A DNA stretch of 64,000 bases. It comes from Bacillota bacterium. Its GTDB lineage: Bacteria; Bacillota; Clostridia; Christensenellales; SZUA-584. Below the pieces are notes generated by a model. That model was not told the origin of the DNA. It ran no database searches and saw only the letters and a program-made list of their open reading frames with translations. Location of the stretch: assembly GCA_023461435.1 (NCBI GenBank), contig JAEYLC010000031.1, positions 23,126-87,125 of the forward strand, given 5' to 3'. The position numbers and the translations under genes were made by a program. This document shows positions 1,752 through 22,656 of this stretch, one piece after another. Each line of letters begins with the position of its first letter. Position 1 is the stretch's first letter.

Positions 1752-1804
1752 AACGTACGGCGATTGGTGATTTAGGCCAAAAAAAAATGGGAGGAAGACA
1801 AAAC

Positions 1805-2992: not shown

Positions 2993-3035
2993 CAGGGAAG
3001 TATAAGCTGGATAAGCTTTGATTCACGGGTGGTTC

Positions 3036-3063
3036 GCCCCGTCTCCTCCTGGTGAGACGGGGC
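3036..3063 (+). other. intercistronic GC-rich stem-loop after the binding-protein gene
   Basis: GCCCCGTCTC-ctcctggt-GAGACGGGGC, a 10-bp perfect stem with no U-tract. It sits between the SBP and ATPase genes, where such hairpins usually act as mRNA-stability or partial-termination elements. Confidence 0.5.
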
Positions 3064-3129
3064 CGGCCCCTGAGCTTTGAGTTTGTACAAATAAAAGCTA
3101 TGACCCATAGCAGCTATGAGGTGAGTAAT

Positions 3130-4633
<1,504 letters not shown>

Positions 4634-4644
<11 letters not shown>

Positions 4645-5599: not shown

Positions 5600-5609
5600 G
5601 AGGACAACC

Positions 5610-6569: not shown

Positions 6570-6682
6570 CAGTAAAATAAGCTCGGGCAGTGAGATAATG
6601 AGTGACTATAATATTGTATCCAGTATCACGAGATGGTATAATCTATGATTAGATGCAATAATAAACTCATAATATTTGGAGA

Positions 6683-7387: not shown

Positions 7388-7437
7388 ACATCAGGATTCA
7401 TTTTCATATGAGCCTGCCGCAAAGTTAAGGAGCAGAC

Positions 7438-7737
7438 ATGGACTACACAATGACGGAATGCGGAGGGTGCTTGACCTGCGAAATTGCATGCTCATATAAG
7501 CACAACAAAGAATTCAACCATCTCATTTCCAGCATTGAAATCGTTGAGCTGGAGAACGAACAGGGATACAAAGTACGCCTGATTGAAGACCCTTCAACGG
7601 GCAGAATACCATGCGACGGATGCCTCGGCAGTGAGCCGATGTGTCTTTCGTATTGTCCGAAACGCGAAGAATTAAAAGCGATCCTCGATCGGCACATTGC
7701 AGAGCGCATCAAGAAAGGGGAGAGCAAGCATGAATAA
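7438..7737 (+). CDS. small 2x[4Fe-4S]-type ferredoxin-like protein, probable electron-transfer partner of the AOR
   Basis: 99 aa with CGGCLTCEIAC (C-x2-C-x2-C-x3-C) and CDGCLGSEPMCLSYCP (C-x2-C-x6-C-x3-CP). Its stop overlaps the AOR start through ATGAATAA. Confidence 0.75.
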   Translation: MDYTMTECGGCLTCEIACSYKHNKEFNHLISSIEIVELENEQGYKVRLIEDPSTGRIPCDGCLGSEPMCLSYCPKREELKAILDRHIAERIKKGESKHE

Positions 7738-9661
7738 GTGTTACGGTATTACCGGCAATACGCTGCGCGTCAATCTGACAAGCAGAGAAATCAAGGTTGA
7801 GGACAACTCGGTTTATTACCGTGATTTTTTAACGTCGAGCGGCTACGCGGCGAAGATCATATACGATGAAGTGAAGGACTGGGTGACACCGTTTGATCCC
7901 ACAAACAAGGTGATCTTTTCGGCCGGTGCGCTGATCGGCACGGTGGCGCCCGGCGCGTGCAAGATGAACATCAGCACGATCGGCCCGATGACGGGCGGCT
8001 GGGCGACGGGCTCGAGCGACAGCTATGTGGCCATGGAGCTAAAGCACGCCGGATACGACGCGATCATCGTGGAAGGGCGCAGCCACAGGCCCTGCTATCT
8101 TTACGTGACCGACGAAAAGGTCGAGATTCGGGACGCGACGGCGCTATGGGGCAAAACCACGTGGGAGACGCTCGACGCGATACGCGAGGAGCTGCAAGAC
8201 CCCAAGCTGCATATCATATCGATCGGGCCGGCGGGTGAAAATCTCGCGCGCGGCGCCTGCGTGATACAGGACCGCGGCCGCGGCTTCGGCCGCTGCGGCA
8301 CGGGCGCGGTGATCGGCTCGAAGAATTTGAAGGCCATCGTCTGCAAGGGCAAAAAGCCGATACAGGTGGCCGATCCCGAAAAATTCATGCAGGTGGCGAT
8401 GCGCTGCCGCAAAAAGATCACTGATTGCCCCGAAACCGAACGGTTCCGCAAATACGGCACGCTCGGCATATTCCAGCACAAGCAGGATATGGGCGCGATC
8501 CCGTACAGGAACTCGCAGGAGAGCGTGTTCCCCGAGGATACGGATGTCACGATGGACCCTGTGCAGGTCATCGATAAATACACGGTTTCCAAGCAGAACT
8601 TCCCGGGTTGCCCGATCGGCTGCGGCCGCCACGTGACGATCGCGGACGGGCCTTACAAAGGGCTTACGGCGGAGTTCAACCATTGGGAGGCTTTTGGCAC
8701 CATCGTGGGCCGCTGCGCGGTGACCGAGCCCACGTTTATGGTGAAGGTGACGGCCTATTGCAACGAGATGGGCATCGATTTCAATCTGGCGGGCTGCGCG
8801 ATCGCGTGGGCGATGGAGTGCTATCAGCGCGGCATACTCACCAAAGAGGATACGGACGGCATGGCGCTTGAGTGGGGCAACGAACCCCAGATACTCGAGC
8901 TGATTCGCAAGATGAGCTATCGAGAGGGCTTTGGCAACATACTCGCGGAGGGCAGCAAGCGCGCAGCCGATATTATCGGCAGGGATTCGGGCTATTACGC
9001 GATGCACATCAAGGGGCAGGATCTCTATGAGTGTCTGCGCGGCTCCAACGCGTGGGCTCTGGGAGCCACGGTATCCACGCGCGGCGGCGGCCATACCACC
9101 GGCACCTGCGGCTATGAGCAGGCGATCAATGTGGACAAGGAAAAGGCATATCAGGTGCTCGGCATCCGGAACGTGGAAGATCCTTTAAGCTACGAAGGCA
9201 AGGCGGAGGTGACATATCTGTTTGAGGTGCTTCACCGCATCGACAACTCAACGGGCATCTGCCATCAGAACACGATATACAACAAGCTCGATTATCTCGT
9301 CGTGGCGGATATCGCGGAAATGCTGTCTGCGGCCACCGGCATCGAGATGAGCGCGCAGGACCTTGAGGACATCGCGCAGCGTCAGATCAACCTTGAGAAA
9401 GCGATTAACGCGCGCTTCACGGATTTTGCGCGTAAGGACGACCTTCCGACGCCGCGCGACCAGACCGAGCCGCTCCATGCGGGTAAAATGGACGGCTGGA
9501 AGCTCGATATGGATAAATACAACGGCATGCTCGACCGCTATTATGAGTTGCACGGCTGGGATAAGCAAACAGGTTATCCCAAACGCAGCACGCTCGAAAA
9601 GTACGGCATCGGCTATGTGGCCGATGAGCTCGAGCGCAGAGGCAAGCTCGGCCGGGAATAA
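7730..9661 (+). CDS. aldehyde:ferredoxin oxidoreductase (AOR) family, tungsten/molybdo-pterin enzyme
   Basis: ORF 7697-9661, with the internal ATG 7730 coupled to the upstream stop. The N-terminus GITGNTLRVNLTSREIKVED, the size (about 643 aa) and CPIGCGRH in the Fe-S/pterin region fit the AOR family. Confidence 0.85.
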   Translation: MNKCYGITGNTLRVNLTSREIKVEDNSVYYRDFLTSSGYAAKIIYDEVKDWVTPFDPTNKVIFSAGALIGTVAPGACKMNISTIGPMTGGWATGSSDSYVAMELKHAGYDAIIVEGRSHRPCYLYVTDEKVEIRDATALWGKTTWETLDAIREELQDPKLHIISIGPAGENLARGACVIQDRGRGFGRCGTGAVIGSKNLKAIVCKGKKPIQVADPEKFMQVAMRCRKKITDCPETERFRKYGTLGIFQHKQDMGAIPYRNSQESVFPEDTDVTMDPVQVIDKYTVSKQNFPGCPIGCGRHVTIADGPYKGLTAEFNHWEAFGTIVGRCAVTEPTFMVKVTAYCNEMGIDFNLAGCAIAWAMECYQRGILTKEDTDGMALEWGNEPQILELIRKMSYREGFGNILAEGSKRAADIIGRDSGYYAMHIKGQDLYECLRGSNAWALGATVSTRGGGHTTGTCGYEQAINVDKEKAYQVLGIRNVEDPLSYEGKAEVTYLFEVLHRIDNSTGICHQNTIYNKLDYLVVADIAEMLSAATGIEMSAQDLEDIAQRQINLEKAINARFTDFARKDDLPTPRDQTEPLHAGKMDGWKLDMDKYNGMLDRYYELHGWDKQTGYPKRSTLEKYGIGYVADELERRGKLGRE

Positions 9662-9681
9662 ATAAACTTAGGGATGATGAC

Positions 9682-10914
9682 ATGAAAACGATCGCGATCA
9701 TACTGAGCATAGACACCAAGGAAGCCGAAGCGCGGTTCCTCAAAAAATGCGTGGAGCAGCGCGGCCACAAGGCGCTCGTGATTGATCTCTCCACGCGAGG
9801 CACCTATGATTTCGTGCCCGATGTGACGCGGGAAGAAGTCTGCCTCGCGGGCGGAACGGAGCCGTCCGCGCTTGCGGGGATGCCGAAAAACGAGGCGGTC
9901 CAAGCGATGATGGACGGCGCAAAAGCCATCGTGCCGTATCTGTTTGCGAAAGGCGCTTTCGACGGCATCATCTCCGCGGGCGGCCTTCAGAACACGATGG
10001 CGGCGGCGGGCGCGATGCAAACGCTGCCCTTGGGCGTGCCCAAGGTGATGGTGTCTACGGTAGCCTGCGGCAACCGCAGCTTTGAGCCGTTCGTGGGCAT
10101 CAAGGATATCATCATGATCCCGTCCATCGCCGACATCACAGGCATCAACTCGGTGACCGAGGTGATACTCGGCAACGCGGCGGCCGCGGTGATCGGTATG
10201 GCGGAGCAGTCAAGGCTGCTCCCGAAGGACGGCAAAACGCGCATTGGTACCACGCTGATGGGCGTGACCAACAACTCGGCGGTGCAGGCGGCGCGTTTGC
10301 TTGAAGCGCAGGGCTATGAGGTGATCAGCTTTCATTCCACGGGCGTCGGCGGCAGGTATCTTGAATATCTGATCGGAGAAGGGCTCATTACGGCGTCAAT
10401 GGATCTCTCGCTGCATGAGGTGATCGCGGCGGATGTGTTCAACCTTGGGTTTTCGAACGGCGCACCGGGCAGGCTCAAGGTGGGCTGCGAAAAGGGCATA
10501 CCGATGGTCGTCGCGCCGGGCGCGCTCGATTTTGTGGACATGTATCTGGCGGATTTTAAAAACGGCATTATCGGCGACTGGACGCAGCGCAAGTACAATT
10601 TGCACAACAATGCGGTGGCGCATGTGAAGGCGTTCGCGCATGAATCGAAGAAAGCCGCAGAAATCGTTGTGGAGAGGCTCAATCAGGCAAAGGGTCCGGT
10701 CACGGTGCTGCTGCCGCTGCGCGGCTTGCGCGTGGATACGCTGCCGGGACAGAGCCTGTATGATCCCGAGGTGGACGAGACGATACTGGGTGTGTTCCGC
10801 GCGGGGCTTGACAAACGCATCAAACAGATCGAGGTGGACGCCAACCTCACGGATATGGCGTTCAGTGAAGCGGCGGCAGCAGAGATGGCGGCGCTCATCG
10901 AAAACAAGCAATAA
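9682..10914 (+). CDS. UPF0261 / Tm-1-like ATP-binding domain protein
   Basis: 410 aa. The family call rests on my recognition of MKTIAIILSIDTKEAEARFLKK...ALVIDLS and the overall two-lobe layout, not on a search. Confidence 0.6.
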   Translation: MKTIAIILSIDTKEAEARFLKKCVEQRGHKALVIDLSTRGTYDFVPDVTREEVCLAGGTEPSALAGMPKNEAVQAMMDGAKAIVPYLFAKGAFDGIISAGGLQNTMAAAGAMQTLPLGVPKVMVSTVACGNRSFEPFVGIKDIIMIPSIADITGINSVTEVILGNAAAAVIGMAEQSRLLPKDGKTRIGTTLMGVTNNSAVQAARLLEAQGYEVISFHSTGVGGRYLEYLIGEGLITASMDLSLHEVIAADVFNLGFSNGAPGRLKVGCEKGIPMVVAPGALDFVDMYLADFKNGIIGDWTQRKYNLHNNAVAHVKAFAHESKKAAEIVVERLNQAKGPVTVLLPLRGLRVDTLPGQSLYDPEVDETILGVFRAGLDKRIKQIEVDANLTDMAFSEAAAAEMAALIENKQ

Positions 10915-10928
10915 CAGGAGAGACGTCG

Positions 10929-12173
10929 ATGTATTTTGAACTTCCTTTTGATAACACGGTTTCAATCTCGGACGAAGATTATGTGATCGCGACTTATTTT
11001 GCGTTCGGCATCACGAACGCCGCGGCGCTCAAAAAAGCGGGCCAGTTTGCGACCGGGCAGAGCGTCGGCACATGGCTGCCGCTGCCCGGCGTGACGCAGG
11101 ACATGGTGGAAAACTGGCAGGCCCGCGTGCTCGCCGTGTATCCGCTGCCCACCGAGGAAAGCATTACCGTGCTGCGGGTCGCGTTTCCGCATCACAATTT
11201 TGCGTCGAGCTTCGCGATGATGCTGACCGCGATGGTCGGCAACGACGTATCCACGGCGCTGCGCATCAAGCTCGTGGATCTCGAGCTGACACCCAAGGCG
11301 CTAAAGGCTTACACAGGCCCGAAGCAGAGCATTGAGGGTTGGCGAAAAGCCACGGGCGTTTATGACAGGCCGCTCGTGCTCAACATGATCAAGCCGTGCC
11401 TTGGGTTCGCGCCGAAGCGCGGCGCAGAGCTGTTTTACCAGAGCGGGCTCGGCGGCGTGGATCTCATCAAGGACGACGAGGTGTTCGGCAACACGACGGT
11501 CAGCAGCGTGGCCGGGCGCCTGAAAGCATACAACGCGGCGGCTCGGCGGCTTAAAGAGGAAACGGGCAAAGCTCCGGTCTATATTGTGAATATCACGGAT
11601 ACGCCAAGACGCATGCGCGAGCATGCGCAGGCCGTGATCGGCGAAGGCGGAAAAGCAGCTATGGTCAATTTCGTGTCCACCGGCATTGACGCGCTGCGCG
11701 AGCTTACCGACGAATTCGGCGAAAAGCTCTGCTTCCTCGCGCATTACGCGGGTGCAGGCATGATGAATTCGCCGCAGATCGGCATTGCGGGCAATGTGAT
11801 GCTCGGTGTGCTGCCGCGACTGGCCGGTGCCGATTCTGTGATGACGATGTATGCGGGTTCGGCCGATACGCATGAGCTGTTTGAGTGCCTGCAGACGGTG
11901 CAGAAGCAGAAGCTGCCGATGGGCGGCATTAAGCCGGTCATGACCTCTCTCGGGGGCGGCATCACGCCGCTGTCTATTGGCAGCACGGCCAAAACCTTCG
12001 GCAACGACGTGATACTCGGCGTGGGCGGCGCGGTGCAGGGGCACCCGATGGGCACGACGGCGGGCGCCAAGGCCGTGATGGCGGCGCTCAGCGGCGCCAT
12101 GCAGGGCAAAGAGCTTGACGAGATTGCCGCAGGTTCGCCCGAGCTTCAGGCCGCGATCGACGCGTGGCAATAG
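10929..12173 (+). CDS. RuBisCO-like protein (form IV RbcL homologue, not a carboxylase)
   Basis: GGVDLIKDDE matches the RuBisCO GG.DF.KDDE carbamyl-Lys/metal motif. IKPCLG corresponds to IKPKLG. LGGGITP and GVGGAVQGHPMG match the two phosphate-binding loops. The catalytic His residues of the HIH region are replaced (RLAGADSVM). Confidence 0.85.
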   Translation: MYFELPFDNTVSISDEDYVIATYFAFGITNAAALKKAGQFATGQSVGTWLPLPGVTQDMVENWQARVLAVYPLPTEESITVLRVAFPHHNFASSFAMMLTAMVGNDVSTALRIKLVDLELTPKALKAYTGPKQSIEGWRKATGVYDRPLVLNMIKPCLGFAPKRGAELFYQSGLGGVDLIKDDEVFGNTTVSSVAGRLKAYNAAARRLKEETGKAPVYIVNITDTPRRMREHAQAVIGEGGKAAMVNFVSTGIDALRELTDEFGEKLCFLAHYAGAGMMNSPQIGIAGNVMLGVLPRLAGADSVMTMYAGSADTHELFECLQTVQKQKLPMGGIKPVMTSLGGGITPLSIGSTAKTFGNDVILGVGGAVQGHPMGTTAGAKAVMAALSGAMQGKELDEIAAGSPELQAAIDAWQ

Positions 12174-12211
12174 CGGGCAACAACCGGGTTTCAACTTAAG
12201 AGGTACATGAT

Positions 12212-13234
12212 ATGACATCACGAGATCGCATGTTAAAGACGCTGGCGCACGAGGACACGGACGTCGTTCCGATATTCCCGAAGATCGCGTTTTCCAATGT
12301 GATTGCGGCCAAGGGTATCACGGTCAGAGATTTCATGACCGACGCGGCCAAGATGGCCGAGGCGACGATGGCGGCCCAGAAGCTCTTCGGGTGGGATGCC
12401 GTCGCGCTGCATACCGATATCGGCAGCGAGGGCAAGGCGCTCGGCAGCGTTTATGAGCAGCCTGTGAACGCGCCCTCACATATCGTGAAATACCTGCTCG
12501 ACGATATCGGCGAGTGCGGGAAGATCGTCGTACCGGACCCGCATCGCACAGCGCCGATGAAGACGGTCATCGAAGCCGTCAAGATCGTGAAAGAGAAAAT
12601 CGGCCAAGAGGTTTATGTACAGGCATGGACGAACGGGCCGCTCAACGTGGCCAGCCAGATATTGAAGCTCGATGAGCTGCTTATCGCGGTCTATGACGAC
12701 CCGGACGCGCTGCACCTGGTGCTGGAGCGCTGTCTGGAAACGGCGGTCGTTTACGCGAGGGCGCTCGCAGAAGCGGGCGCGGACGCTGTGGCGTTTGGCC
12801 ATGCGATGGCGTCGACCTCGGTGATTTCGAGAAAGCAGTATGAGGAGTTTGCGCTCCCGTATGAAAAAGAGCTGATATCGGCGATCCATCAGGTCGGGGC
12901 GGCGGCCATCACGCATATCTGCGGCAACACCGAGCCGATTATCGACCTCATCGCACAGAACGGCAGCGATATCATCGATTTCGATCATGTCTGCCGCATA
13001 GACGTTCTGAGAGAAAAAGCGCCCGATAAGATATTCCGCGGCAACATCGACCCGGCGCTGCTTGCCCTGGGAACACAGGAAGAAGTCTGTGAGGCGGTCA
13101 AAGTACTGATGGCGGCGGACGGACGCTCCGGGCGGTTCATATTGGGCTCGGGCTGCGAGGTCGCGCTGAACACGCCGGTTGAAAACCTAAACGCGTTTGT
13201 GCAGGCGGGAAGGGAATTCGGAAAGCTCGGTTAA
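12212..13234 (+). CDS. uroporphyrinogen-decarboxylase (URO-D) family protein, MT2/MtaA-like subtype
   Basis: 340 aa with a URO-D-like N-terminus (RDRMLKTLAHEDTDVVP). It carries ITHICGNT and ILGSGCEV, an H-x-C...C arrangement typical of Zn-dependent MtaA/MtbA/MtsA-type methyltransferases rather than HemE (NLGHG). Confidence 0.7.
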   Translation: MTSRDRMLKTLAHEDTDVVPIFPKIAFSNVIAAKGITVRDFMTDAAKMAEATMAAQKLFGWDAVALHTDIGSEGKALGSVYEQPVNAPSHIVKYLLDDIGECGKIVVPDPHRTAPMKTVIEAVKIVKEKIGQEVYVQAWTNGPLNVASQILKLDELLIAVYDDPDALHLVLERCLETAVVYARALAEAGADAVAFGHAMASTSVISRKQYEEFALPYEKELISAIHQVGAAAITHICGNTEPIIDLIAQNGSDIIDFDHVCRIDVLREKAPDKIFRGNIDPALLALGTQEEVCEAVKVLMAADGRSGRFILGSGCEVALNTPVENLNAFVQAGREFGKLG

Positions 13235-13443
13235 CGTATAAGTAGATAAACGGCGCGCTGCGGTTTGGACTGCTGACAAAGTAAGTATCAAATGTAATTT
13301 TGAGTGAGCGATAGCGAAGCGAAAAATCCCATGTTCAAAGCGATTTACCATGGGATGCTATCCACTGTGTAGTCCGTCGCTTTGCATAGCAAATAAGGTC
13401 ATCAAGCTGGACCGCGTTGCGGTTCAGTATAAAAGAATATTTG

Positions 13444-13540
13444 TATTTCCGAGCCGGACACACCTAAAGGAAACCATGGTGACCCGGCCGATGGGCTGTG
13501 AGCGGAAACGGCGCAGCCTCCCGCGTTTGGAAAGGAAATA
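13444..13540 (+). promoter_or_regulatory. candidate molybdenum/tungsten cofactor (Moco/Tuco) riboswitch aptamer
   Basis: P1 is TATTTCC (13444-50) pairing with GGAAATA (13534-40). Blocks I recall as conserved in the Moco RNA motif are present: CCGAGCC (13449-55), CACC..GGTG helix (13461-81), GCCTCCC (13516-22) and TGGAAAGGA (13528-36). There is a nested GCCGG/CCGGC helix and a GAAA-capped hairpin at 13494-13518. mobB lies downstream and an AOR gene upstream. No covariance model was run. Confidence 0.65.
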
Positions 13541-13574
13541 AGCAGATCAGTTTGCATCCGCAAGCTGCTCATTG

Positions 13575-13606
13575 CCCTTTTCAAAATGGTTGAGAGGGGT
13601 TTTTTT
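13575..13606 (+). terminator. putative expression platform: terminator-like hairpin whose 3' arm is the RBS of the first gene
   Basis: CCCTTTT (13575-81) pairs with AGAGGGG (13593-99), including G-U pairs. A T7 run (13600-06) follows, then TTG 13608. GAGAGGGG is also the only plausible RBS. Confidence 0.45.
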
Positions 13607-13607
13607 A

Positions 13608-14648
13608 TTGAAAAAAGGCTTAAGGCCGATCGCCGTTTTGGGCATAATCGCCGTCATGAGCGGTCTTCTTATCGGCTGTGCAGCAGAAAAGCTTAAGGGC
13701 GATGCCGTGACTGCCGGTGAAATCGCATTAACGGGGCTGGCCGGGGGAGAGCGAGTCATCACAGTGGATGAGATCAAAAAGCTCGAACCGTTTGAGGGAC
13801 ATGTGGAAGGGGCAGACTCTCAAGGAAACGTGATTGAGACCGACATCAAGGGGGGGCGGCTCAGTGAGCTGCTCGCGCTTTATGGTATCAACCAAACCGA
13901 TTTAAACGGTATCCGGCTGACAGCGTCAGACGGCTATTCCATAGAGGTGCCGCATGAGATTCTGGCGCGGCGTGATGTGATACTCGCCTACGAGACGGAC
14001 GGTCAGCCGCTCGATAAGGACAACGCGCCTGTTCACGTGTTTATCCCCGAAGAAAGAGCGATGTACTGGGTACGCATGCTCAGCAAAATCGAAGTCATTG
14101 AGGCGGCGCTCGGCGAAACGGCGACGGGTGTGACCATCATGGAATCTGCTTATGACAAAAACGATTACACCGATTTTGAGCTGAACGGGCAGACATATGC
14201 GGCGCTCGATACGCGAAAAATTTTGGCTGACGGTACTGGCGCGGATACCGTGCGGATGCTTGCGGCGGACGGGCTTGAAAAGAACGAGACACTGGAGAAC
14301 TTTTATAAAGGCGTCATTCAGCTGGAGGGAGAAAATGCGCCGCAGTTTGCGTCCGATACATTGCCAATCGGCATGTCTGTGAAAAAGCTGCTGGTGATTC
14401 AAAGCGGCACGCAGGCATTTTACTTCTTAAGCAGCGCCGAAGCGACAGACGGATCGGTTAGTCTTGAAAAGATAGCGAAAGACTGCGGTCTTGCAGAGGC
14501 CGATGCGTATGTGCTGCGTTTTGATGATGGCGGCGAAAAAACGGTGACGCCTGAGGAGCTTAAGACATTGGCTGTGGGACCGGACGGCGAAATGCTCACG
14601 GAAGACGCACAGAAGAACCCCAAACTCATTTCGATTCAATTATTTTAG
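13608..14648 (+). CDS. lipoprotein with repeated molybdopterin-oxidoreductase-like (Oxidored_molyb fold) domains, function unknown
   Basis: ORF 13572-14648. TTG 13608 gives MKKGLRPIAVLGIIAVMSGLLIGC, a Sec-type lipobox without a twin-Arg. The region LSELLALYGI...IRLTASDGYSIEVPHEIL..RDVILAYETDGQPL...APVHVFIPEE.AMYWVRMLSKIEV resembles the YedY/sulfite-oxidase Moco-domain pattern. A second, weaker copy is present (MLAADGLEKNE...IQLEGENAPQF...VKKLLVIQ). Confidence 0.6.
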   Translation: MKKGLRPIAVLGIIAVMSGLLIGCAAEKLKGDAVTAGEIALTGLAGGERVITVDEIKKLEPFEGHVEGADSQGNVIETDIKGGRLSELLALYGINQTDLNGIRLTASDGYSIEVPHEILARRDVILAYETDGQPLDKDNAPVHVFIPEERAMYWVRMLSKIEVIEAALGETATGVTIMESAYDKNDYTDFELNGQTYAALDTRKILADGTGADTVRMLAADGLEKNETLENFYKGVIQLEGENAPQFASDTLPIGMSVKKLLVIQSGTQAFYFLSSAEATDGSVSLEKIAKDCGLAEADAYVLRFDDGGEKTVTPEELKTLAVGPDGEMLTEDAQKNPKLISIQLF

Positions 14649-14660: not shown

Positions 14661-15137
14661 ATGACAAAAAAGCTTTTGACTGCGGTATTGATCACAATGA
14701 TGGTCGTCTCGGCGCTGGCGGCTTGCGCGCCTGCGCCTGCGCAAACAGAGCAGGCGGCGTGGTCCGTTGAAGTGAAGGGCGCGGAAAAGGATGCTTTCAC
14801 GAGCGCGGATTATGCGAAGCTCGATCCCGTCACCATCGACACGGTGCTCAAAACCAAGGACGGCACTCAGGCGGACGAAGCATGGCAGGGCGTGCTATTA
14901 AAGGATGTGCTTAATGAGCTGGGCGTGAAGGATTACACCTCCATAACGCTCGAAGCATCGGACGGTTACGCGAAAGACTATACGCCGGACATCGTGAATG
15001 ATGATCAGACGATACTCGGCACCGTTGTCAACGGAAAAGCGCTGACGCAGGAGGATGGCTATGTGTGCGCGGTTCCGGCCAGCCAGCCGGGCAACATGCG
15101 CGTGAAGCTGCTCGTGAAAATCACGGTCAATGAATAA
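14661..15137 (+). CDS. small lipoprotein, single Oxidored_molyb-like domain (paralogue of 13608 and 15698)
   Basis: AGGAGG RBS and signal peptide with lipobox LAAC. The region WSVEVKGA...WQGVLLKDVLNELGV...ITLEASDGYAKDY...ILGTVVNGKAL...MRVKLLVKITV follows the domain pattern. No Cys is present in the W.G region where Moco enzymes carry their ligand. Confidence 0.6.
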   Translation: MTKKLLTAVLITMMVVSALAACAPAPAQTEQAAWSVEVKGAEKDAFTSADYAKLDPVTIDTVLKTKDGTQADEAWQGVLLKDVLNELGVKDYTSITLEASDGYAKDYTPDIVNDDQTILGTVVNGKALTQEDGYVCAVPASQPGNMRVKLLVKITVNE

Positions 15138-15705
15138 GAAAAAAGGGCTTCTCGCGTCGTACTCGGCGCGCGATCTGATCAACATTGCGCTGTGCGCTGC
15201 GCTCGGCATTGCCGTGAAGCCCATACTGACACCGCTCGTTCATATCGTCACCGGGCCGCTGGTTGTCCCCGGAGGAGCCATGGCGGGCGGCTTGTATATG
15301 CTGTTCATCATTGTGCCTGTCGGGCTCACAAAAAAACATGGCGCATCAACGCTCACCTGCCTGGTGCAGGCGCTGCTCATGATGGTTACGGGTGTGCCCG
15401 GCAGCCATGGCGTATTGAGCCTCGTGACGTATGTGCTGCCCGGCGTGGCGGTAGATCTTATTTCATTGACGGCGGTTAAAAAGGGGCTGAATGCGTTCAC
15501 TTGCCTGATCTGCGGGCTCGCGGCCAACACGGTCGGCTCGTTTCTGTCGAATCTGGTGTTTTTCCGGCTGCCGCTTGTGCCGCTTATGCTGATGCTTTTT
15601 ACCGCGGCGCTGTCCGGATGCTTCGGCGGGCTGATTGCGTGGCAGCTGATCAAGCGGCTGCGGCGGTTTGCTCCGGCTGTGGGGAAGGGAGAATCGCATG
15701 AATAA
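15130..15705 (+). CDS. six-TM integral membrane protein, ECF-transporter S-component-like
   Basis: 191 aa. By eye there are six hydrophobic spans. The N-terminal ARDLINIALCAALGIAV resembles S-component starts. Its start overlaps the upstream stop (ATGAATAA). No EcfA/EcfT genes are in the window. Confidence 0.5.
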   Translation: MNKKKGLLASYSARDLINIALCAALGIAVKPILTPLVHIVTGPLVVPGGAMAGGLYMLFIIVPVGLTKKHGASTLTCLVQALLMMVTGVPGSHGVLSLVTYVLPGVAVDLISLTAVKKGLNAFTCLICGLAANTVGSFLSNLVFFRLPLVPLMLMLFTAALSGCFGGLIAWQLIKRLRRFAPAVGKGESHE

Positions 15706-16204
15706 AAGAGTCTGGCTGATGGCGGATATCATTTTGCTGCTGGCGGCCGGTGTCGCCGTGTTCGTAATGCTGAATGCGCAAACGCTGCCAAATGGCGGAA
15801 GCGATGCTGTCACCATCATACAAAATGACCAGACGGTGACCTTTGATATTGCGTATTTAAAGGGGCTGTCCAAAACGACGTTTACCGCAAATCTCGATAC
15901 CAACGGGCAGGACCCGGTGGAAAAAACCTTCGGCGGTGTGCCGCTCACCGATGTGCTCAAAGGCATGGGGTTTGATTTGAGCGGCGCGTCTCAGGTCGTC
16001 TTCAAAGCGTCAGACGGCTATTCGACGGTGGTGACGGCGGAGGAAGCAACGGATTCGGACAACGTTTATGTGGTTTATGAAAGGGACGGCAAGCCTTCGG
16101 GCACAATGGCGCAGGGCGGAACGGGCCCGATAGAGATCGTGATCAGAAAGGATGCGTTCTCCCAGCGCTGGTGCAAGTACCTGCGGGAGATTGACATCGA
16201 GTGA
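15698..16204 (+). CDS. membrane-anchored Oxidored_molyb-like domain protein (third paralogue)
   Basis: ORF 15668-16204. ATG 15698 overlaps the upstream stop (ATGAATAA). An N-terminal TM span (VWLMADIILLLAAGVAVFVML) is followed by FGGVPLTDVLKGMGF...VVFKASDGYSTVV...VYVVYERDGKP...GPIEIVIRKD...RWCKYLREIDI. Confidence 0.6.
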   Translation: MNKRVWLMADIILLLAAGVAVFVMLNAQTLPNGGSDAVTIIQNDQTVTFDIAYLKGLSKTTFTANLDTNGQDPVEKTFGGVPLTDVLKGMGFDLSGASQVVFKASDGYSTVVTAEEATDSDNVYVVYERDGKPSGTMAQGGTGPIEIVIRKDAFSQRWCKYLREIDIE

Positions 16205-16274: not shown

Positions 16275-16781
16275 ATGAAGATTTTCAGCATTGTGGGGTA
16301 CTCGCATTCGGGCAAAACCGCAACGGCGGCAGCGCTGATCAGGGAGCTGATCAGGCGCGGCTATACCGTCGGCGCGGTGAAGGAGAGCCACCACGCGATC
16401 AGAACGGATACGCAGGGGACGAATACCGATCTGCTGCGTCAGGCTGGGGCCGGTCTCGTCGCGGCCAGATCACAAAATGAAACGCATGTGTTTTTTGACG
16501 AACGGCTGCCGCTGAAGAACATATTGGCTTTTTTTGATTATGATTATGTGGTGCTCGAGGGCGTGAGCGATGTCGCAGTGCCGCAGATCGTCACGGCGGT
16601 TGACACAGAGGGCATTGAGGCAAAGCTCAGCGCGCAGACGTTCGCCGTCTCGGGCGTGATTTCAAAGACGCTGCGCGAATACAAGGGCCTGCCCGTGATC
16701 AACGGCCTCGCGGATACGGCGAGGCTTGCGGATTTCATTGAAGAAAAGGCCGTTATCTGGCGGAAAGATTGGGAAGAATAG
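16275..16781 (+). CDS. mobB: molybdopterin-guanine dinucleotide biosynthesis adapter protein MobB
   Basis: Matches the MobB pattern: MKIFSIVGYSHSGKTATAAALIRELIRRGYTVGAVKESHH (Walker A plus the KH.HH-like motif), then TDLLRQAGA. About 168 aa. Confidence 0.8.
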   Translation: MKIFSIVGYSHSGKTATAAALIRELIRRGYTVGAVKESHHAIRTDTQGTNTDLLRQAGAGLVAARSQNETHVFFDERLPLKNILAFFDYDYVVLEGVSDVAVPQIVTAVDTEGIEAKLSAQTFAVSGVISKTLREYKGLPVINGLADTARLADFIEEKAVIWRKDWEE

Positions 16782-16814: not shown

Positions 16815-17525
16815 TTGACGGAGCCGTTAACCGTCCGAATAGAACAGACGATACTCGATCAAATGCGGATTGCGGAGTACAGTGTGGTGTGCCGCTTTTG
16901 CAGCCGCCGCAACGAGGTATACCGGATTCACGCGAGCCGTGACGATGGCTCTGTTTTGGATTTCGTTTATAAGGTGTATATCGCGGGCCATATAGAAACC
17001 GAATATCATTATTTGCACCAAACGCAGGGTGTGGGGACGCCCAAGGTGTTGGCCAAGGGAAAAAACGCGCTGTGCCTTGAATGCATAGACGGGCAACTGC
17101 TGATCGAAAGGCTTGAGGAAGCGGAAAAAACGAACGAGCCTTTTTATCCGTATCTGGATATGCTGATCGATTTTCTGGCGCGGTTTTACGAGGCGCTGCC
17201 CGGCTATGTTTACGGCGATATCAATCTGCGCAATTTTATCATCGCGCAGGACGGGCTATACGGCATTGACCTTGAAGAGACAAAACACGGGAATATCGCT
17301 GCCGATATCGGCAGGACCGCCGCGTATCTTCTGACGTACGATCCAGCCAACACGCCATACAAGAAGGACATCGCGGACTATTTTATTAACGCGGGTGCTG
17401 ATAGATTTTCAATCAGCAAAAGCGAGATCATGGACAATATGCGCATGGAGCTCGATTATATGAGGGTCCGACGGCAGTTGAGAGACGAAAGAGCACGCCC
17501 GACTGCTCTGGACAAAGAAGCATAA
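16815..17525 (+). CDS. protein-kinase-like fold protein (APH/RIO/Kdo-kinase-like), function unknown
   Basis: TTG start 5 nt after GAGGTGAG. The catalytic-loop-like YGDINLRNFIIAQDGLYGIDLEE (D..N.N...ID.E) is typical of small-molecule or atypical kinases. Confidence 0.55.
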   Translation: MTEPLTVRIEQTILDQMRIAEYSVVCRFCSRRNEVYRIHASRDDGSVLDFVYKVYIAGHIETEYHYLHQTQGVGTPKVLAKGKNALCLECIDGQLLIERLEEAEKTNEPFYPYLDMLIDFLARFYEALPGYVYGDINLRNFIIAQDGLYGIDLEETKHGNIAADIGRTAAYLLTYDPANTPYKKDIADYFINAGADRFSISKSEIMDNMRMELDYMRVRRQLRDERARPTALDKEA

Positions 17526-17772: not shown

Positions 17773-20700
17773 CTATTTGACAGTCACCGTGCATGAAACG
17801 GTATGACCGTTGCTCGTCGTCGCGGTGACGACGGCGGTGCCCGGCGATACTCCTTTCACGCGCCCCTTGGCATCAACGGTCACAATTGCCGAATTGCCGC
17901 TGGACCATGTGACGGTCTTGAAGTCCGTGTTCTTGGGCAATACTGTGGCCCTGAGCGAGGCTGTCTTTCCCGTTTTGAGCGTCAGCGTTTGTTTGGACAT
18001 CTTGACGCCCGTCGGGTATATCGGGGTGACTGTGACCGTGCAGCTTGCCGTGACGCCGCTGCCATCCTTCGCGGTGCATGTGATAACGGCTGTGCCGCCC
18101 GCTTTGCCGGTCACCACGCCCGCGCTCGACACGGAGGCCACCTTGGAATTGCTGGACTTCCATGCTATCTTCTTGTTGCTCGCGGTGACGGGGGCGGCTG
18201 AAGCGGTGAGCTTCAGCTTCTGAGTCCGCGCAATGGTCGCGGTGCTCACATTCAGCGATATGGACGCAACGGGCTGTTTGACGGTGATGGTCTTTTTGAT
18301 CGTTGTGGTCTTGGTTTTCACCTTTCCCTTTTTGTCAGTGGTTTGATACACGATCTTCGTGATGATCGTCGCTTTGCCGCCCGCAAGGAACGTGACGGTG
18401 CCGCCCGAATCCACCGACGCCACACTTGGGTTGCTTGAAGAGTAAGTCACCGACACAACCGTATAACCCTTGGGTGCCGCCGGAGGAACAATGGTCAAAG
18501 CCGTTCCCGCATTCGCTCTGGACGGCAGCTTTTTGGCCGCGATATTGCCCATATGCTTTGGCTGCCCGACCGCCACGGAGCATGTCGCCGTATTGGCCGG
18601 ATTTTGCGCGTCGCGCGCGGCTGCCGTGTACGTGCCCGCGGCGAGACCGCCGAATTGCGCCGAGCTTTGCCAGCTTGTGCCACCATTCAAGGAATATTCA
18701 TACGAACCGCTGTCTCCGCCCGATGCCGTGATCCCGACGGAACCGTTCGAAGCGCCGTAAATGGACACATCTATCTTGCTGCAACCGATGCCCACTGGTG
18801 TGGCGGCAGCGAACTGTGCCGTGTAAGAGGCGCTGCTCAGCGCGGTGAACGTATAGACTGAGCTCCTTGATACCTCCATACCGCTCTTTTTCCAGCAGAC
18901 GAAGCAGTATTTCGGTTTGGGTGTTGCCGTCAGTGTGACGGTAGCGCCTTTGTCGTACCTGCCGCCGCCCGTCGCTGTCCCGTATGAAGAATTGCTGGGC
19001 AAAGCCGTAATGACAAACTGCTGCGTCTGTACGGTGACATTGCATGTTTGCGTTGTGGTCTCTGCCGTTTGCTTGCCTGTTGCCGTATTGTCGGTGTTGG
19101 TCACCGCACAGTAGTAATACAGTGTGCCGATCGTATCGGTCGGAGCGCTGTAGGCAGCGGAACTCGCACCTGAAATCAGCGTACCGTTGGTGTTGTTGTC
19201 TTCGGTATTCTTATACCACTGATAGGACAGCGTGCCTTGGCTCACATTCGCGGTCACTGTCAGATCGGCTGATCCGCCTTCGGACACCGTGATGCTCTGC
19301 GGCTGGCCCGTGATCTGCGGCGCCTCGGCATCGACCGCGGCTTCCGTCGCATCAAACGAGTAACTGGCCGTCAGTGTGCCGCTTGTGCGATTTGAGATAA
19401 GCGCCGTATGCCCGTTAATAGTCACCGTCACGCCGTCTGTAAACACATATCCGGCCTTTGCGGTGAGTGTGACGCTGGCCTTATAAACCGTGCCAAAGCC
19501 AAACGGGTTGTCCGCTGGCTCCCAGGTGACAGCGGAGGCCGTGACGCTGTCGGCCGTGACGGATGCTGTTGTATCGGGGGTTCCTTTTGCCGTCGGCGCG
19601 TCGATACCCGTGACCGCCACGCCGGTTATCGGCTCCGGTTCCGTCGCATCAAAAGTGTAGCTCGCAATAAGCGTACCACCGGCGCCCGGCTCGACGTCAG
19701 CCGTCTCCCCGTTGATGGTTACCGTCGCATTGAGGTCAAATTCAAAGCCGGTCTGCGCGGTCAGCGTGACGCTCGCGGTATAGGCCGTATGATATCCGAA
19801 TGCCGTGACATCGGGTTCCCATGTGACCTCGGATGCCGTGACGCCCTGGGGAGAAACCAAGGCCGTTTTATCGGGTGTGTTTCCGGCCGCGGGTGCGGTA
19901 ATATCCGTCACCTCTACTTTTGTGATCAGCTCCGGTTCCGTCGCGTCAAATGTGTAGCTGGCGGTCAGCGAGCCGTTGGTGTTGAGAACTGGCTGTACCG
20001 TATGCCCGTTGATGGTCACTGTTGTTTCGGCTGTAAACGCATAGCCGGGTTGAGGGTACAGCTTGACGCTTGCGGTGTACACGGTATGATAGCCGAATGA
20101 TGAGACGGACGGCGTCCATGTGACAGCGGATGCCGTTACGTTCCCGGTTTCAACGGTTGCCGTCGTGTCAGGAGGGCTTCCTGCCACCGGCACGTCAATG
20201 CCTGTCACCGTCGCGCTGCTGATTTCTGTGGGAGGGACTGCAGTTTGCTTATAGAGGTACATTGTTTTGGCATTGGTGTCGTTCGAAGCGACGGCAAAAT
20301 AGTACGGATTGCTCCCAGTCTGATACAAGTAATACGTGCTGGAAGAGCCTTTAATCTTAATCACATGATTGGTGCTGTCATATTGCCAATCGGTGTTGGC
20401 CGAGCCGTCATCAGTCGTTTTCAGAGAGATTATGTCCCCGCCCCCGCTCGGCCGGGTCAAAAAGTTGCTCCCGTTTTTCACGTTATAGCCGTTGCCGTCA
20501 GTGGTGAACGTCCATAGCATGTTGGAGCTGATATCTTGTGAATTTATGATGCTGTCATTCACGGTGACGGCGGTGGCGGCAAGGTAGTTTGAATTGACGA
20601 CGCTTGCCGTCAGCGCATAATTTGTGGTGCCCACATCGACAATCACATATGTGCAGCCGCTCTCTATGCCCGTTGCATATTCATACGTATAGCGAGGGGC

Positions 20701-22656
20701 GGCTGCGGTTTTATCAAACGCGTATGTCACCGTCAAAGTGCCGTTGCTGTTGAGCGAAACGGTGTCCGTCGGCGCGCCGTTAACCGTCACGGCGGTCTCC
20801 GATGTGAACTCATAGGCGAATTGCGCCGATAATGTGATGCTTGCCGTATAGGCCGTATCGTATCCGAAGGGATTGGCGGCCGGGTTCCACGTGACGACGG
20901 CGGGGGTTATCACGCCCGTTGAAGCTGTGGACGCGCTCGTATCCGGCGCCGCGCCCGCGGCCGGCTCATCAACGCCGGTGATATCGATCCGGTCAATCGC
21001 AATCGGATTGGACACGATCAGTTTATAAAGATAGATGCTGTTGCTCGCGTTAGTCCCGTAGGTGAAAAAATTCGTATCCCCGGACGATGTCTGGTAGAGG
21101 AACAAATCACCCTGACCGGTGCTGGTTACGTTGAGGTTATGCGTTGTGCTGTTATATTTCCAATCCGTATATGCGGCGCCTTCATCTTCTGTATCGAGAT
21201 ATACGCTGCCGGTCGTGCCGGTTAATCGATGGAGGATGCTGCCGCCGTTTTTTACATTATAGCCGTTTCCGTCCGTGGTCAGTTCCCAGACCATACTGTC
21301 GTCCACATCGCCAGGGTCTAGTGTGCCGCCGCTAACGGCCACGGGGCTGCACATCAAAAAATCCGTGTCGCCGATTGTCACGGGGGAGGTGGTCAAGGCA
21401 TAGGCATCGGTTTCCGATTTGTCGACGATCACATATCTGGCGCCGCTTTCAATGCTTAGCGCATATTCATATGTGACGCTGCCTGCGTCGCCGGAAGTGA
21501 CTCTGACCCTTGCCGCCGCACTCGTGACCGAAGCAGTATCCCCGTCCTTTAAGTTGGTAATCTGGCAATAGTAATTTTTTATTCCGGGGGTTTGCGTCGG
21601 CGCCGAGAAAACGGGTGAATTTTCTCCGATCGGCGTCCCGCCAATGCTGTCGCTGTTGTCATCCTGATACCACTGATAGGAGAGCGACCCGCCGTCGCTG
21701 ACGGTCGCATCCACGGAAAGGGACGCGTCTTCGCCAACGCCGACGGAGACATCCTGCGGCGGCGTATTGATTGTGGGCTTCTCCGCTATAAACGTGGTAT
21801 CCACGGTCACGTTATATTCGGATCCGGTCGAGCCGCTTAAATTCTTGTATTGGAAGTTAAGAACCGTGTCTGTGCCGTTTTTCGTCATTGTCAGGAGTAC
21901 GCCGGCAGCGTTATTAACCGCGGCATAGATTGACCCCATATTGACATATGTAAAATGGATAGCAGCCGGAGCCAGACCCGCGGCGCACTGAATCGTATCA
22001 CCGTCCTTTTTGACCGTTCCGTATCCCGGGTCGCTCAGCGTATGGTTGTGTCCCCATAGCACAATCGCGTTGGGATATTTATTGAGCCTTTGGACTAATT
22101 CCGGCGCGTTGGCGGTTGTTCTGGATTCATAGTAATGCAGCGGATAGTGAGACACGACGATGATCGGCTTCGACGGATCAATCTGCGAGAGAGCGGTATC
22201 GAGCGCTTCAATCTTATCCATAGAGATGATCTGGTTTATCGTTGTTGTATCAAGATCTAAAGCATAGATCGCGTAATCGTCGCCGTCGTACACAAGCCCG
22301 CTGTCGTAGGTGCCTGTCAAATCATGATTTCCTCTGGCCTTAACGACCGGGACGTCATTGAAGATGCTCTTCGCCATGGATGCGCATGACGCCGCCACTT
22401 CAGCGGCATTCGCATCGGTTCTGTATGTAAAATCCCCTCCGAATATCATATGGTTGAGCGTTGACGTACCCTCATGAAGAGCGGTCAGCCAATCCTCCAG
22501 GTCTTCAGTTCTGTCGTGGACATCAGATGTGATCAGGATGGAAACGGGTGGGGGGCTGTCGGCAAATGCCACTGCCGGCAACAGGCCAAAAATGAGCATT
22601 ATCGACATTATGAAGGCTAATACTCTGGCTGCGGATCTGCATTTCCTCGTTTTCAT
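17773..22656 (-). CDS. giant secreted multi-domain protein: N-terminal calcineurin-like metallophosphoesterase followed by Ig-like, repeat and Big_2 domains
   Basis: 1627-aa ORF with AGGAGG RBS and signal peptide (VLAFIMSIMLIFGLLPAVAFA). Phosphoesterase motifs are TSDVHD, GGDFTY, RGNHD and WGHNH. After these come two I-set-like Ig domains (LSYQWY...YYC), a duplicated unknown module, four repeats of about 99 aa, an InlB-B-repeat-like segment, a SprB-like repeat and four C-terminal Big_2-like domains (TVTWSSGNSAIVTVDAKGRVKGVSPGTAVVTATT). I saw no LPXTG, SLH or choline-binding anchor. Confidence 0.9.
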   Translation of the reverse strand: MKTRKCRSAARVLAFIMSIMLIFGLLPAVAFADSPPPVSILITSDVHDRTEDLEDWLTALHEGTSTLNHMIFGGDFTYRTDANAAEVAASCASMAKSIFNDVPVVKARGNHDLTGTYDSGLVYDGDDYAIYALDLDTTTINQIISMDKIEALDTALSQIDPSKPIIVVSHYPLHYYESRTTANAPELVQRLNKYPNAIVLWGHNHTLSDPGYGTVKKDGDTIQCAAGLAPAAIHFTYVNMGSIYAAVNNAAGVLLTMTKNGTDTVLNFQYKNLSGSTGSEYNVTVDTTFIAEKPTINTPPQDVSVGVGEDASLSVDATVSDGGSLSYQWYQDDNSDSIGGTPIGENSPVFSAPTQTPGIKNYYCQITNLKDGDTASVTSAAARVRVTSGDAGSVTYEYALSIESGARYVIVDKSETDAYALTTSPVTIGDTDFLMCSPVAVSGGTLDPGDVDDSMVWELTTDGNGYNVKNGGSILHRLTGTTGSVYLDTEDEGAAYTDWKYNSTTHNLNVTSTGQGDLFLYQTSSGDTNFFTYGTNASNSIYLYKLIVSNPIAIDRIDITGVDEPAAGAAPDTSASTASTGVITPAVVTWNPAANPFGYDTAYTASITLSAQFAYEFTSETAVTVNGAPTDTVSLNSNGTLTVTYAFDKTAAAPRYTYEYATGIESGCTYVIVDVGTTNYALTASVVNSNYLAATAVTVNDSIINSQDISSNMLWTFTTDGNGYNVKNGSNFLTRPSGGGDIISLKTTDDGSANTDWQYDSTNHVIKIKGSSSTYYLYQTGSNPYYFAVASNDTNAKTMYLYKQTAVPPTEISSATVTGIDVPVAGSPPDTTATVETGNVTASAVTWTPSVSSFGYHTVYTASVKLYPQPGYAFTAETTVTINGHTVQPVLNTNGSLTASYTFDATEPELITKVEVTDITAPAAGNTPDKTALVSPQGVTASEVTWEPDVTAFGYHTAYTASVTLTAQTGFEFDLNATVTINGETADVEPGAGGTLIASYTFDATEPEPITGVAVTGIDAPTAKGTPDTTASVTADSVTASAVTWEPADNPFGFGTVYKASVTLTAKAGYVFTDGVTVTINGHTALISNRTSGTLTASYSFDATEAAVDAEAPQITGQPQSITVSEGGSADLTVTANVSQGTLSYQWYKNTEDNNTNGTLISGASSAAYSAPTDTIGTLYYYCAVTNTDNTATGKQTAETTTQTCNVTVQTQQFVITALPSNSSYGTATGGGRYDKGATVTLTATPKPKYCFVCWKKSGMEVSRSSVYTFTALSSASYTAQFAAATPVGIGCSKIDVSIYGASNGSVGITASGGDSGSYEYSLNGGTSWQSSAQFGGLAAGTYTAAARDAQNPANTATCSVAVGQPKHMGNIAAKKLPSRANAGTALTIVPPAAPKGYTVVSVTYSSSNPSVASVDSGGTVTFLAGGKATIITKIVYQTTDKKGKVKTKTTTIKKTITVKQPVASISLNVSTATIARTQKLKLTASAAPVTASNKKIAWKSSNSKVASVSSAGVVTGKAGGTAVITCTAKDGSGVTASCTVTVTPIYPTGVKMSKQTLTLKTGKTASLRATVLPKNTDFKTVTWSSGNSAIVTVDAKGRVKGVSPGTAVVTATTSNGHTVSCTVTVK
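19330..20226 (-). repeat. three tandem 297-bp (99-aa) intragenic repeats, with a fourth diverged copy near 20700-21000
   Basis: The block CTCCGGTTCCGTCGC(A/G)TCAAA..TGTAGCT recurs at 19633 and 19930, and its shorter core TTCCGTCGCATCAAA recurs at 19342, giving a spacing of 297 nt. At protein level the units end ...SYTFDATEPE. Confidence 0.8.

Follow-up and report, generated by a model that had tools for sequence, protein, structure and literature searches.

The window analysed here is a stretch of 64,000 nucleotides (nt) from a Bacillota bacterium of the SZUA-584 lineage (contig JAEYLC010000031.1, positions 23,126 to 87,125 of the forward strand), and it contains an RNA element of the Moco RNA motif class (Rfam RF01055; Moco, molybdenum cofactor) directly in front of six genes. 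With moderate confidence, we read this element as a P3-less OFF riboswitch of the tungsten cofactor (Tuco) type that leads a six-gene operon, which would be a trimmed form of a widespread importer for the salvage of a molybdopterin-type pterin. The RNA itself is a routine addition to a known class and subtype, and its link to sulfite oxidase (SO) family genes was recorded in 2008. The unusual part is the kind of operon that it precedes, in which an energy-coupling factor (ECF) transporter is found together with PruR-like binding proteins.

Aptamer and subtype

The RF01055 covariance model matches positions 13435-13553 on the plus strand with 65.8 bits (E = 1.3e-13; gathering score, 36 bits) over model positions 1-135, and this is the sole above-gathering match in the window in an Rfam 15 scan. 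Our own covariance model R1, built from related loci as described below, scores the same aptamer at 66.4 bits. The element is almost certainly a riboswitch of the RF01055 class, and its parts are as follows.

13435..13553, plus strand: aptamer, full-length RF01055 match of the P3-lacking subtype (Rfam covariance-model score)
13444..13450, plus strand: 5' strand of P1, TATTTCC, with its partner GGAAATA at 13534-13540 (Rfam alignment)
13453..13488, plus strand: P2, in which 13453-13464 pairs with 13478-13488 (Rfam structure line; many compensatory changes)
13493..13519, plus strand: P4 hairpin with a GAAA tetraloop at 13505-13508 (Rfam alignment)
13520..13530, plus strand: P5 (CC at 13520-13521 with GG at 13529-13530) and its loop (Rfam alignment, covariation)

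The P1 helix closes a 97-nt element (13444-13540). Within P2, GCCGG (13453) pairs with CCGGC (13484) and CACC (13461) pairs with GGTG (13478), and the conserved blocks of the class are found as CCGAGCC at 13449, GCCTCCC at 13516 and TGGAAAGGA at 13528. The bulge of P2 has the form CCUAAAG (13463-13469) ... CAUGG (13475-13479), which resembles a tetraloop-receptor motif; it was identified by inspection against the published description, in which the tetraloop receptor is located in the P2 bulge (Regulski 2008, PMC2408646).

Related loci were gathered through homologues of the ECF S component that is encoded by the third gene of the operon, with one genome scanned per species. Aptamers in these loci were located by their conserved 3' core, and an alignment of 37 of them analysed with RNAalifold recovered P1, P2, P4 and P5, with compensatory changes in 17 of 25 pairs. 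The R1 model was built from this alignment, and a search of 85 sources with it identified 61 aptamers, which with a single exception share the strand of the operon. In the 61-aptamer alignment 93.5% of the cells are paired and both sides have changed in 19 of the 25 pairs, values that 0 of 500 shuffles reached, whereas partners slid along the alignment paired in only 35-49% of cells (at most 48.5%). P1 is paired in 100% of the cells and covaries, and P4 shows compensatory changes in 8 of its 10 pairs. An Rfam re-scan of eight loci confirmed ten of ten R1 matches at 51.8-74.1 bits.

A preliminary description of this DNA, made from the letters alone, had proposed a Moco/Tuco-class riboswitch and suggested a covariance-model scan, naming the absence of a match or of compensatory changes as grounds against its proposal. 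The proposal is borne out by a score well above the gathering threshold and by the covariation in 61 aptamers, and every sequence feature that had been listed is present where it was placed. The gap behind the preceding URO-D-like gene had been given as 337 nt, which reaches only the longest-ORF (open reading frame) start at 13572; the real start codon of gene 1 is the TTG at 13608, and the distance from the URO-D-like stop (13234) is 373 nt. On the whole, the observation was right and its interpretation partly so, since the riboswitch class and the combined terminator and ribosome-binding-site reading have held up, and the P3-like hairpin and the reading of the genes have not.

The hairpin in question is the one capped by GAAA, which had been taken for an extra, P3-like helix and had led to an apparent mismatch between a Moco-type RNA and the tungsten-type aldehyde:ferredoxin oxidoreductase (AOR) encoded nearby. 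As a candidate for P3 it was rejected, because the GAAA hairpin is P4, the carrier of the GNRA tetraloop, and the P3 positions of the model are deleted in the Rfam alignment, leaving only 4 nt (CGAU) between P2 and P4. The conflict with the AOR rested on this mislabelled helix and is therefore gone: the RNA has the Tuco-type form. Furthermore, the 61 family aptamers are all 82-121 nt long, compared to 135 for the P3-containing consensus, so there is no room for P3 in any of them. The class is split by the presence or absence of P3, and the P3-lacking RNAs belong to organisms and operons that are connected with tungsten cofactor or with molybdopterin (MPT) synthesis (Regulski 2008, PMC2408646); the same criterion for tungsten-cofactor association was applied in a 2024 study of E. 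limosum (PMC11725836). Assignment of the window RNA to the P3-lacking, Tuco-associated subtype is thus made with very high confidence. The AOR, which is likely a user of the cofactor, adjoins the operon in four other loci as well (L002, L008, L014 and L026).

Additional aptamers were encountered around some of the related operons. Tandem P3-less aptamers precede the operon in four loci, namely L029 (7989-8088 and 8187-8293), L084 (4318-4423 and 4593-4700), L057 (6948 and 7118) and L066 (3441 and 3605); the first aptamer of L029 has its own terminator, and the pairs in L029 and L084 are Rfam-confirmed. Further P3-less aptamers lie just past the operon end in L071 (18672-18781, minus strand), L021 (14629-14733) and L040 (14390-14496), where they precede other genes. 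In L017 (Alkaliphilus peptidifermentans), tandem SAM-I/IV and SAM-I riboswitches are located downstream of the operon (16658-16778 and 16825-16937, plus strand).

Alternative pairings of the expression platform

The region between the aptamer and gene 1 can adopt two mutually competing arrangements, which involve the following elements.

13526..13535, plus strand: switching segment UUUGGAAAGG, which either provides the 3' strands of P5 and P1 or forms an antiterminator with 13576-13585 (folding)
13545..13570, plus strand: spacer hairpin between aptamer and terminator, found in both alternative folds (folding)
13574..13606, plus strand: intrinsic terminator with an 11-bp stem (13574-13600) and a T7 run (13600-13606), whose 5' arm at 13576-13585 is the antiterminator partner (terminator scan, folding)
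13592..13599, plus strand: ribosome-binding site (RBS) GAGAGGGG inside the 3' arm of the terminator (sequence, folding)

Folding of 13435-13625 yields the aptamer and the terminator together. With a transcript that ends at 13588, the structure of lowest energy is the antiterminator (-54.0 kcal/mol), in which UUUGGAAAGG pairs with CCUUUUCAAA (13576-13585). At full length, the structure with P1 and terminator reaches -62.9 kcal/mol versus -56.8 kcal/mol with the antiterminator enforced. The earlier suggestion that the terminator doubles as a sequestor of the RBS is upheld by the predicted folds, which place GAGAGGGG within the 3' arm. An automated terminator finder had chosen for the window a hairpin inside gene 1, which is not the true terminator (13574-13606).

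A similar arrangement is found across the family. Terminator-like hairpins follow 52 of the 61 family aptamers, and the 5' arms of many of these terminators hold CUCCUUUC-like sequences complementary to GGAAAGGAG, with 21 of the 52 falling within the best 5% of shuffles. Aptamer, antiterminator and terminator are all kept in the close relatives L002 and L008. Taken together with the predicted folds, an OFF switch that acts through transcription termination and RBS sequestration is likely. In such a switch, binding of the ligand, a metal-pterin cofactor and probably its tungsten form, would let P1 and P5 hold UUUGGAAAGG, upon which the downstream hairpin and its U7 tract would form and end transcription, and the RBS would be buried in those transcripts that escape. 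Without the ligand, UUUGGAAAGG would pair with the 5' arm of the terminator, and the resulting antiterminator would allow expression of the operon.

Compared with the P3-lacking subtype of RF01055 as described before (PMC2408646, PMC11725836), the window RNA shares P1, P2, P4 and P5, the GAAA tetraloop with a CCUAAG/UAUGG-like receptor, the absence of P3, the CCGAG, CCUCCC and GGAAAGG blocks, a terminator that also sequesters the RBS, and a tungsten-type AOR in the genome region. It differs in what it regulates, which is an ECF-type transporter cluster and not moa/mod/tup, WOR, Fe-ABC or FocA genes.

The operon and its exported PF00174-like proteins

The genes behind the riboswitch had been regarded as lying outside the Moco regulon and encoding exported proteins without a known function, a view that does not hold. 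They encode three proteins related to PF00174, the sulfite-oxidase-family molybdopterin-binding domain (Pfam cut-off, 24 bits), an S component of the PF09819 family and a MobB-family protein, and there is a precedent in the 2008 supplement, where Syntrophomonas wolfei is listed with Moco RNAs that are directly followed by SO_family_Moco genes, which were read there as cofactor users (Regulski 2008, PMC2408646). The genes, followed by the AOR as context, are listed here.

13608..14648, plus strand: gene 1, lipoprotein (lipobox LIGC) with a PF00174-like domain of the OMa type and no twin-arginine translocation (Tat) motif (PF00174, 45 bits)
14661..15137, plus strand: gene 2, small lipoprotein (lipobox LAAC) with a PF00174-like domain of the OMa type (PF00174, 42.5 bits)
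15130..15705, plus strand: gene 3, S component of an ECF transporter, a membrane protein (PF09819, 37.1 bits versus a cut-off of 25.2)
15698..16204, plus strand: gene 4, membrane-anchored PF00174-like, PruR-like protein of the OMb type (PF00174, 33.7 bits; structure model)
16275..16781, plus strand: gene 5, MobB-family P-loop protein (Pfam, 73.1 bits; TIGR00176, 87.2 bits versus a cut-off of 76.2)
16815..17525, plus strand: gene 6, cytoplasmic RIO1/APH-like small kinase (RIO1, 24.3 bits versus a cut-off of 22)
7697..9661, plus strand: tungsten-type AOR (AFOR_N, E = 1e-66; AFOR_C, E = 2e-93)

Homologues of gene 3 carry the NCBI name 'ECF transporter S component', and a comparison of the S-component profile with solved structures gave no sequence match. 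The assignment is reflected in the genomic neighbourhood, as the S-component homologues adjoin two ATP-binding cassette (ABC) ATPases in 82 of 85 loci and CbiQ/EcfT in 72 of 85. Carriers of the operon comprise at least 531 species-level genomes, mostly of anaerobic Bacillota and some of Actinomycetota; 80 species-level loci were examined among them, and 85 sources entered the mapping of ORFs to families by phmmer. Eubacteriaceae ES3 and a close relative of the window have clusters of the same kind that are headed by RF01055, and such clusters also occur in Tissierellia and Coriobacteriia. Of the 80 species loci, 51 have a P3-less aptamer upstream on their own strand, and 13 of the other 29 are truncated on the upstream side; an aptamer is thus present in about three in four of the loci whose upstream sequence suffices for a judgement.

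The canonical order starts with the aptamer and continues with one to three exported PF00174-like proteins (OMa), the S component, an exported enzyme of the Phosphodiest family, OMb, EcfA, EcfA', EcfT, MobB and the kinase. Among the 85 sources, OMb was found in 81, EcfA in 82, EcfT in 72, MobB in 64, the phosphodiesterase in 56 and the kinase, at the operon end, in 49. The window and its nearest relatives L002 and L008, uncultured Bacillota metagenome-assembled genomes with 88% and 81% identity, have a trimmed operon that lacks EcfAA'T and the phosphodiesterase; no EcfA, EcfA' or EcfT was detected in the 64-kb window. Minimal operons (L036, L042 and L059) consist of the aptamer (~9620-9810), the S component (~9980), OMb (absent in L036), EcfAA'T and MobB, without OMa, and they give the core of the system. 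The surroundings of the operon up to a distance of 10 kb were searched in the 85 loci for moaA-E, moeA, moeB and mog; only one MoaA-like and two MoeB-like ORFs were identified, which is uninformative on whole-genome content.

Expanded operons were also observed (L003/L087, L033, L043, L046, L048-L050, L078, L082 and L083, at about 1 to 10000), in which 5-9 kb separate the aptamer from the S component downstream. The intervening genes encode giant PF00174-like proteins anchored by SLH domains, a fusion of FMN_bind and PF00174, and a NapH-like membrane protein with Fer4_5 and FMN_bind domains; a flavoprotein with FAD_binding_2 and FMN_bind domains is encoded downstream. This content suggests that the expanded versions hold an extracytoplasmic, flavin-based electron-transfer module.

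To understand what the PF00174-like proteins do, their localization and fold are of particular importance. Their N-termini carry a lipobox or a membrane anchor, and the phosphodiesterase is likewise exported, whereas the kinase and MobB have no such signal. An AlphaFold2 (AF2) model of gene 4, based on 29 homologues, reached a predicted local distance difference test (pLDDT) value of 85.9, and its best match in the PDB is PruR, a pterin-binding protein of the periplasm (7kom, E = 5e-8, TM-score 0.75 normalised to the target). The model also matches the PruR structures 7kou, 7kos and 7rkb (with neopterin), and sulfite dehydrogenase, sulfite oxidase and YedY rank behind PruR. The fold match was obtained for gene 4 only, and genes 1 and 2 were judged by their shared motifs and signal types; a single-sequence AF2 model of gene 2 was poor (pLDDT 50.5) and was not used.

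PruR has a degenerate SUOX fold without the Mo-ligating cysteine, and it sandwiches its pterin between a Tyr and a Trp beside an Asn (PMC11194511). Residues D106, Y108 and W158 are invariant in the OMb family, and most proteins of both types have the motif [DN]G[YF] (OMb, 88 of 96; OMa, 71 of 74). The profile alignment of OMb with PruR is weak (E = 0.21); it places OMb D106-G-Y108 on the N-D-Y of PruR, and the D-T of OMb on the P-W of PruR at the cysteine position. The window-type proteins are similar to PruR (PMC11194511) in being small, exported, degenerate SUOX-fold domains without a Mo-ligating cysteine, in the aligned Asn/Asp-x-Tyr motif (NDY versus DGY), and in PruR being the best structural match to gene 4. 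They differ in the marginal sequence similarity, in the replacement of PW by D-T-[NS], in having an ECF transporter as partner and not a DcpA-type cyclic di-GMP enzyme, in their hosts (Bacillota and Actinomycetota, not Proteobacteria), and in the presumed ligand, a molybdopterin-type pterin and not monapterin or neopterin. With the PW motif absent and no DcpA partner for gene 4, its product is, according to the model, PruR-like in fold and not a member of the PruR family.

The PF00174 scores could also be explained if the three proteins were ordinary extracytoplasmic molybdenum or tungsten oxidoreductases, similar to YedY/MsrP or sulfite dehydrogenase, with the riboswitch tying their expression to cofactor supply and with the membrane protein and MobB as accessories. 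All three exceed the Pfam gathering cut-off, homologues are labelled 'molybdopterin-dependent oxidoreductase' or 'YedYZ catalytic subunit' in NCBI and JGI annotations, such genes were classed as cofactor users in 2008 (Regulski 2008), and the FMN_bind, NapH-like and flavoprotein partners in the expanded loci are typical of extracytoplasmic electron transfer. However, the Mo-ligand cysteine is missing: in the three window proteins there is no Cys in the 40-50 residues before the xGxxL motif, and any Cys within 40 residues occurs in only 2 of 75 OMb proteins. At this position MsrP has RCVEAWS. Direct alignment of the OMb profile with E. coli MsrP gave nothing meaningful in hhalign and no match in hmmsearch, and the loss of the cysteine was therefore judged by the position of the motif, the PruR profile alignment and the fold match. 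The alignment of gene 2 to SorA is weak and spans only the region after the Mo-ligating cysteine.

Furthermore, twin-arginine motifs are nearly absent (1 of 74 OMa and 3 of 96 OMb proteins), and the domains are only ~130 residues long, like PruR, the best structural match. Compared with YedY/MsrP, SorA and sulfite oxidase, the proteins share the fold and a PF00174 score above the cut-off, but they are roughly half the size and have no catalytic Cys, no Tat signal and no dimerisation or haem domains. An OFF switch would repress such an enzyme exactly when its cofactor is available, and this account would not explain why the genes are so tightly linked to those of a complete ECF transporter, an exported phosphodiesterase and a kinase. 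Identity as oxidoreductases is unlikely on these grounds, and the PF00174-like proteins are, as judged from the model and the motifs, exported proteins with a pterin-binding fold and not Tat-exported molybdoenzymes.

The surroundings of the operon can be described briefly. Upstream (6683-13234, plus strand), the window encodes a GntR/FCD regulator, the tungsten-type AOR, a UPF0261 protein, a RuBisCO-like protein (form IV-like) and a URO-D-family protein, a gene string that the relative L002 shares, likewise directly upstream of its riboswitch. A gene convergent with the operon end (17773-22656, minus strand) encodes a protein of 1627 residues that has a calcineurin-like phosphoesterase (Metallophos) domain at its N-terminus as well as Big_2/Ig repeats; beside the operon of the Coriobacteriia locus L006, too, there is a surface protein of giant size with a Metallophos domain. 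The window's protein might stand in for the exported phosphodiesterase that is missing from its operon. The remaining regions (1-6569, 26606-47239 and 50939-60773) look ordinary, with mostly sugar-type ABC transporters, GntR/FCD regulators and pentose/tetrose-style carbohydrate enzymes, including a split transketolase, transaldolase, class II aldolases, xylose-isomerase-like TIM barrels and an FGGY kinase, and they also contain a methyl-accepting chemotaxis protein and a two-component AraC-type system. Three ORFs had no Pfam match at E <= 1e-4: 38934-40835 (plus strand, 633 residues), 30190-30699 (minus strand, 169 residues) and 62204-62785 (minus strand, 193 residues).

Proposed pterin salvage and its alternatives

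In the salvage reading, the exported phosphoesterase could cleave the dinucleotide or phosphate groups from environmental cofactor, and the PruR-like exported PF00174 proteins could capture the resulting pterin, which the dedicated ECF S component would import. Following uptake, the cytoplasmic kinase and the MobB-like NTPase could return the pterin to the cofactor pool, and the salvaged compound (MPT, Moco/Tuco, cyclic pyranopterin monophosphate, a precursor, or a dephosphorylated or breakdown form) would feed enzymes like the adjacent AOR. What the riboswitch binds, that it acts as an OFF switch in vivo, which way the transporter works and what it carries are inferred in this model. Uptake of a Moco-related pterin by the operon is a possibility that we hold close to evenly balanced, leaning slightly towards doubt. 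Such a route parallels the salvage of thiamine, riboflavin and NAD precursors.

The closest known systems are the ECF vitamin importers under riboswitch control (ThiT/TPP, RibU/FMN, FolT/THF, QueT/preQ1 and CblT/B12; PMC3766115). In both cases the S component is under an OFF riboswitch for the matching coenzyme, and in both a dedicated EcfAA'T is present in some genomes and a solitary S component in others, as in the window. The proposed combination of an extracellular phosphoesterase and a cytoplasmic kinase likewise follows the logic of vitamin salvage routes. In contrast to ECF systems, which normally lack them, extracytoplasmic binding-protein-like partners are always part of the operon cluster here.

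The transporter could also work in the opposite direction and export Moco or Tuco to Sec-exported apo-PF00174 proteins outside the membrane, by analogy with the export of FAD by RibU/FmnA for extracytosolic flavinylation in Listeria. This would agree with the PF00174-like proteins being Sec-exported or lipoproteins, so that any cofactor must be loaded outside, as well as with the FMN_bind-containing partners in the expanded loci, and MobB could pass the cofactor to the transporter. On the other hand, an OFF switch would stop export when the cofactor is plentiful, the missing Mo-ligating cysteine leaves no obvious holoenzyme to mature, the exported phosphodiesterase and cytoplasmic kinase better suit a route of degradation, import and rephosphorylation, and canonical EcfAA'T modules are importers. 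We regard export as distinctly unlikely.

The nature of the substrate can be disputed as well, since PF09819 has historically been labelled 'ABC cobalt transport', JGI annotates homologues as thiamin/HMP (hydroxymethylpyrimidine) permeases, and Moco RNAs commonly precede the mod/tup oxyanion transporters. Import of tungstate or molybdate, or of an unrelated vitamin such as the HMP/thiamine precursors taken up by other PF09819 members, is nevertheless improbable: the partners have a pterin-binding fold; MobB, the kinase and the exported phosphodiesterase suit an organic phosphorylated or dinucleotide cofactor and not an oxyanion; the regulator belongs to the Moco class and not the TPP class; and none of the S components with a solved structure is similar in sequence to the one encoded here. 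All three of these accounts (oxidoreductases, cofactor export, and import of oxyanions or thiamine precursors) fit fewer observations than the salvage model and are less likely.

Several points weigh against the overall reading of an OFF riboswitch and a salvage operon. The terminator fold is favoured at equilibrium at full length even without the ligand, and the switch must therefore be kinetic; in addition, a promoter scan detected no sigma-70-like promoter upstream of the aptamer. Both points would also suit a chance or decayed aptamer without a regulatory role, which is extremely improbable given the 65.8 bits and E value of the match, the occurrence of orthologous aptamers, which show compensatory changes, at this place of the operon in 51 of 80 species loci, and the retention of aptamer, antiterminator and terminator in L002 and L008. 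To our knowledge, direct ligand binding has never been shown even for this riboswitch class, the ligand of which is too labile for standard in-line probing, and the association of P3-less RNAs with Tuco is a correlation only. Without EcfA, EcfA' and EcfT in the window, a shared energising module must be assumed for its S component. Similarly, the FMN_bind, NapH-like and flavoprotein genes of the expanded Tissierellia/Sedimentibacter operons hint at extracytoplasmic redox chemistry that salvage does not explain. ECF transporters normally work without extracytoplasmic binding proteins, and the role that the salvage reading gives to the PF00174-like proteins is without precedent.

We know of no Moco or molybdopterin transporter in any organism. 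Our literature search for an ECF, Moco, molybdopterin or Tuco transporter returned nothing relevant, and no paper was found that recognises this ECF transporter, its PruR-like partners or a role in the uptake of Moco or pterins, although an earlier prediction in the ECF comparative literature is possible. The cluster is thus apparently a widespread and undescribed transporter operon. Cross-feeding of Moco is documented in nematodes. How pterins cross membranes was stated as unknown in a 2026 review (PMC13259868).

To conclude, the operon offers a concrete and easily testable candidate for the uptake of cofactor pterins. With its phosphoesterases, PruR-like lipoproteins, ECF transporter, kinase and MobB under a presumed Tuco repression, it could be, as a tentative proposal, the first bacterial system that can be recognised as taking up the pterin moiety of the molybdenum and tungsten cofactors. 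If the salvage reading is true, it would represent an ECF transporter that uses extracytoplasmic binding proteins, and the operon suggests that tungsten and molybdenum cofactors may be shared in anaerobic communities.

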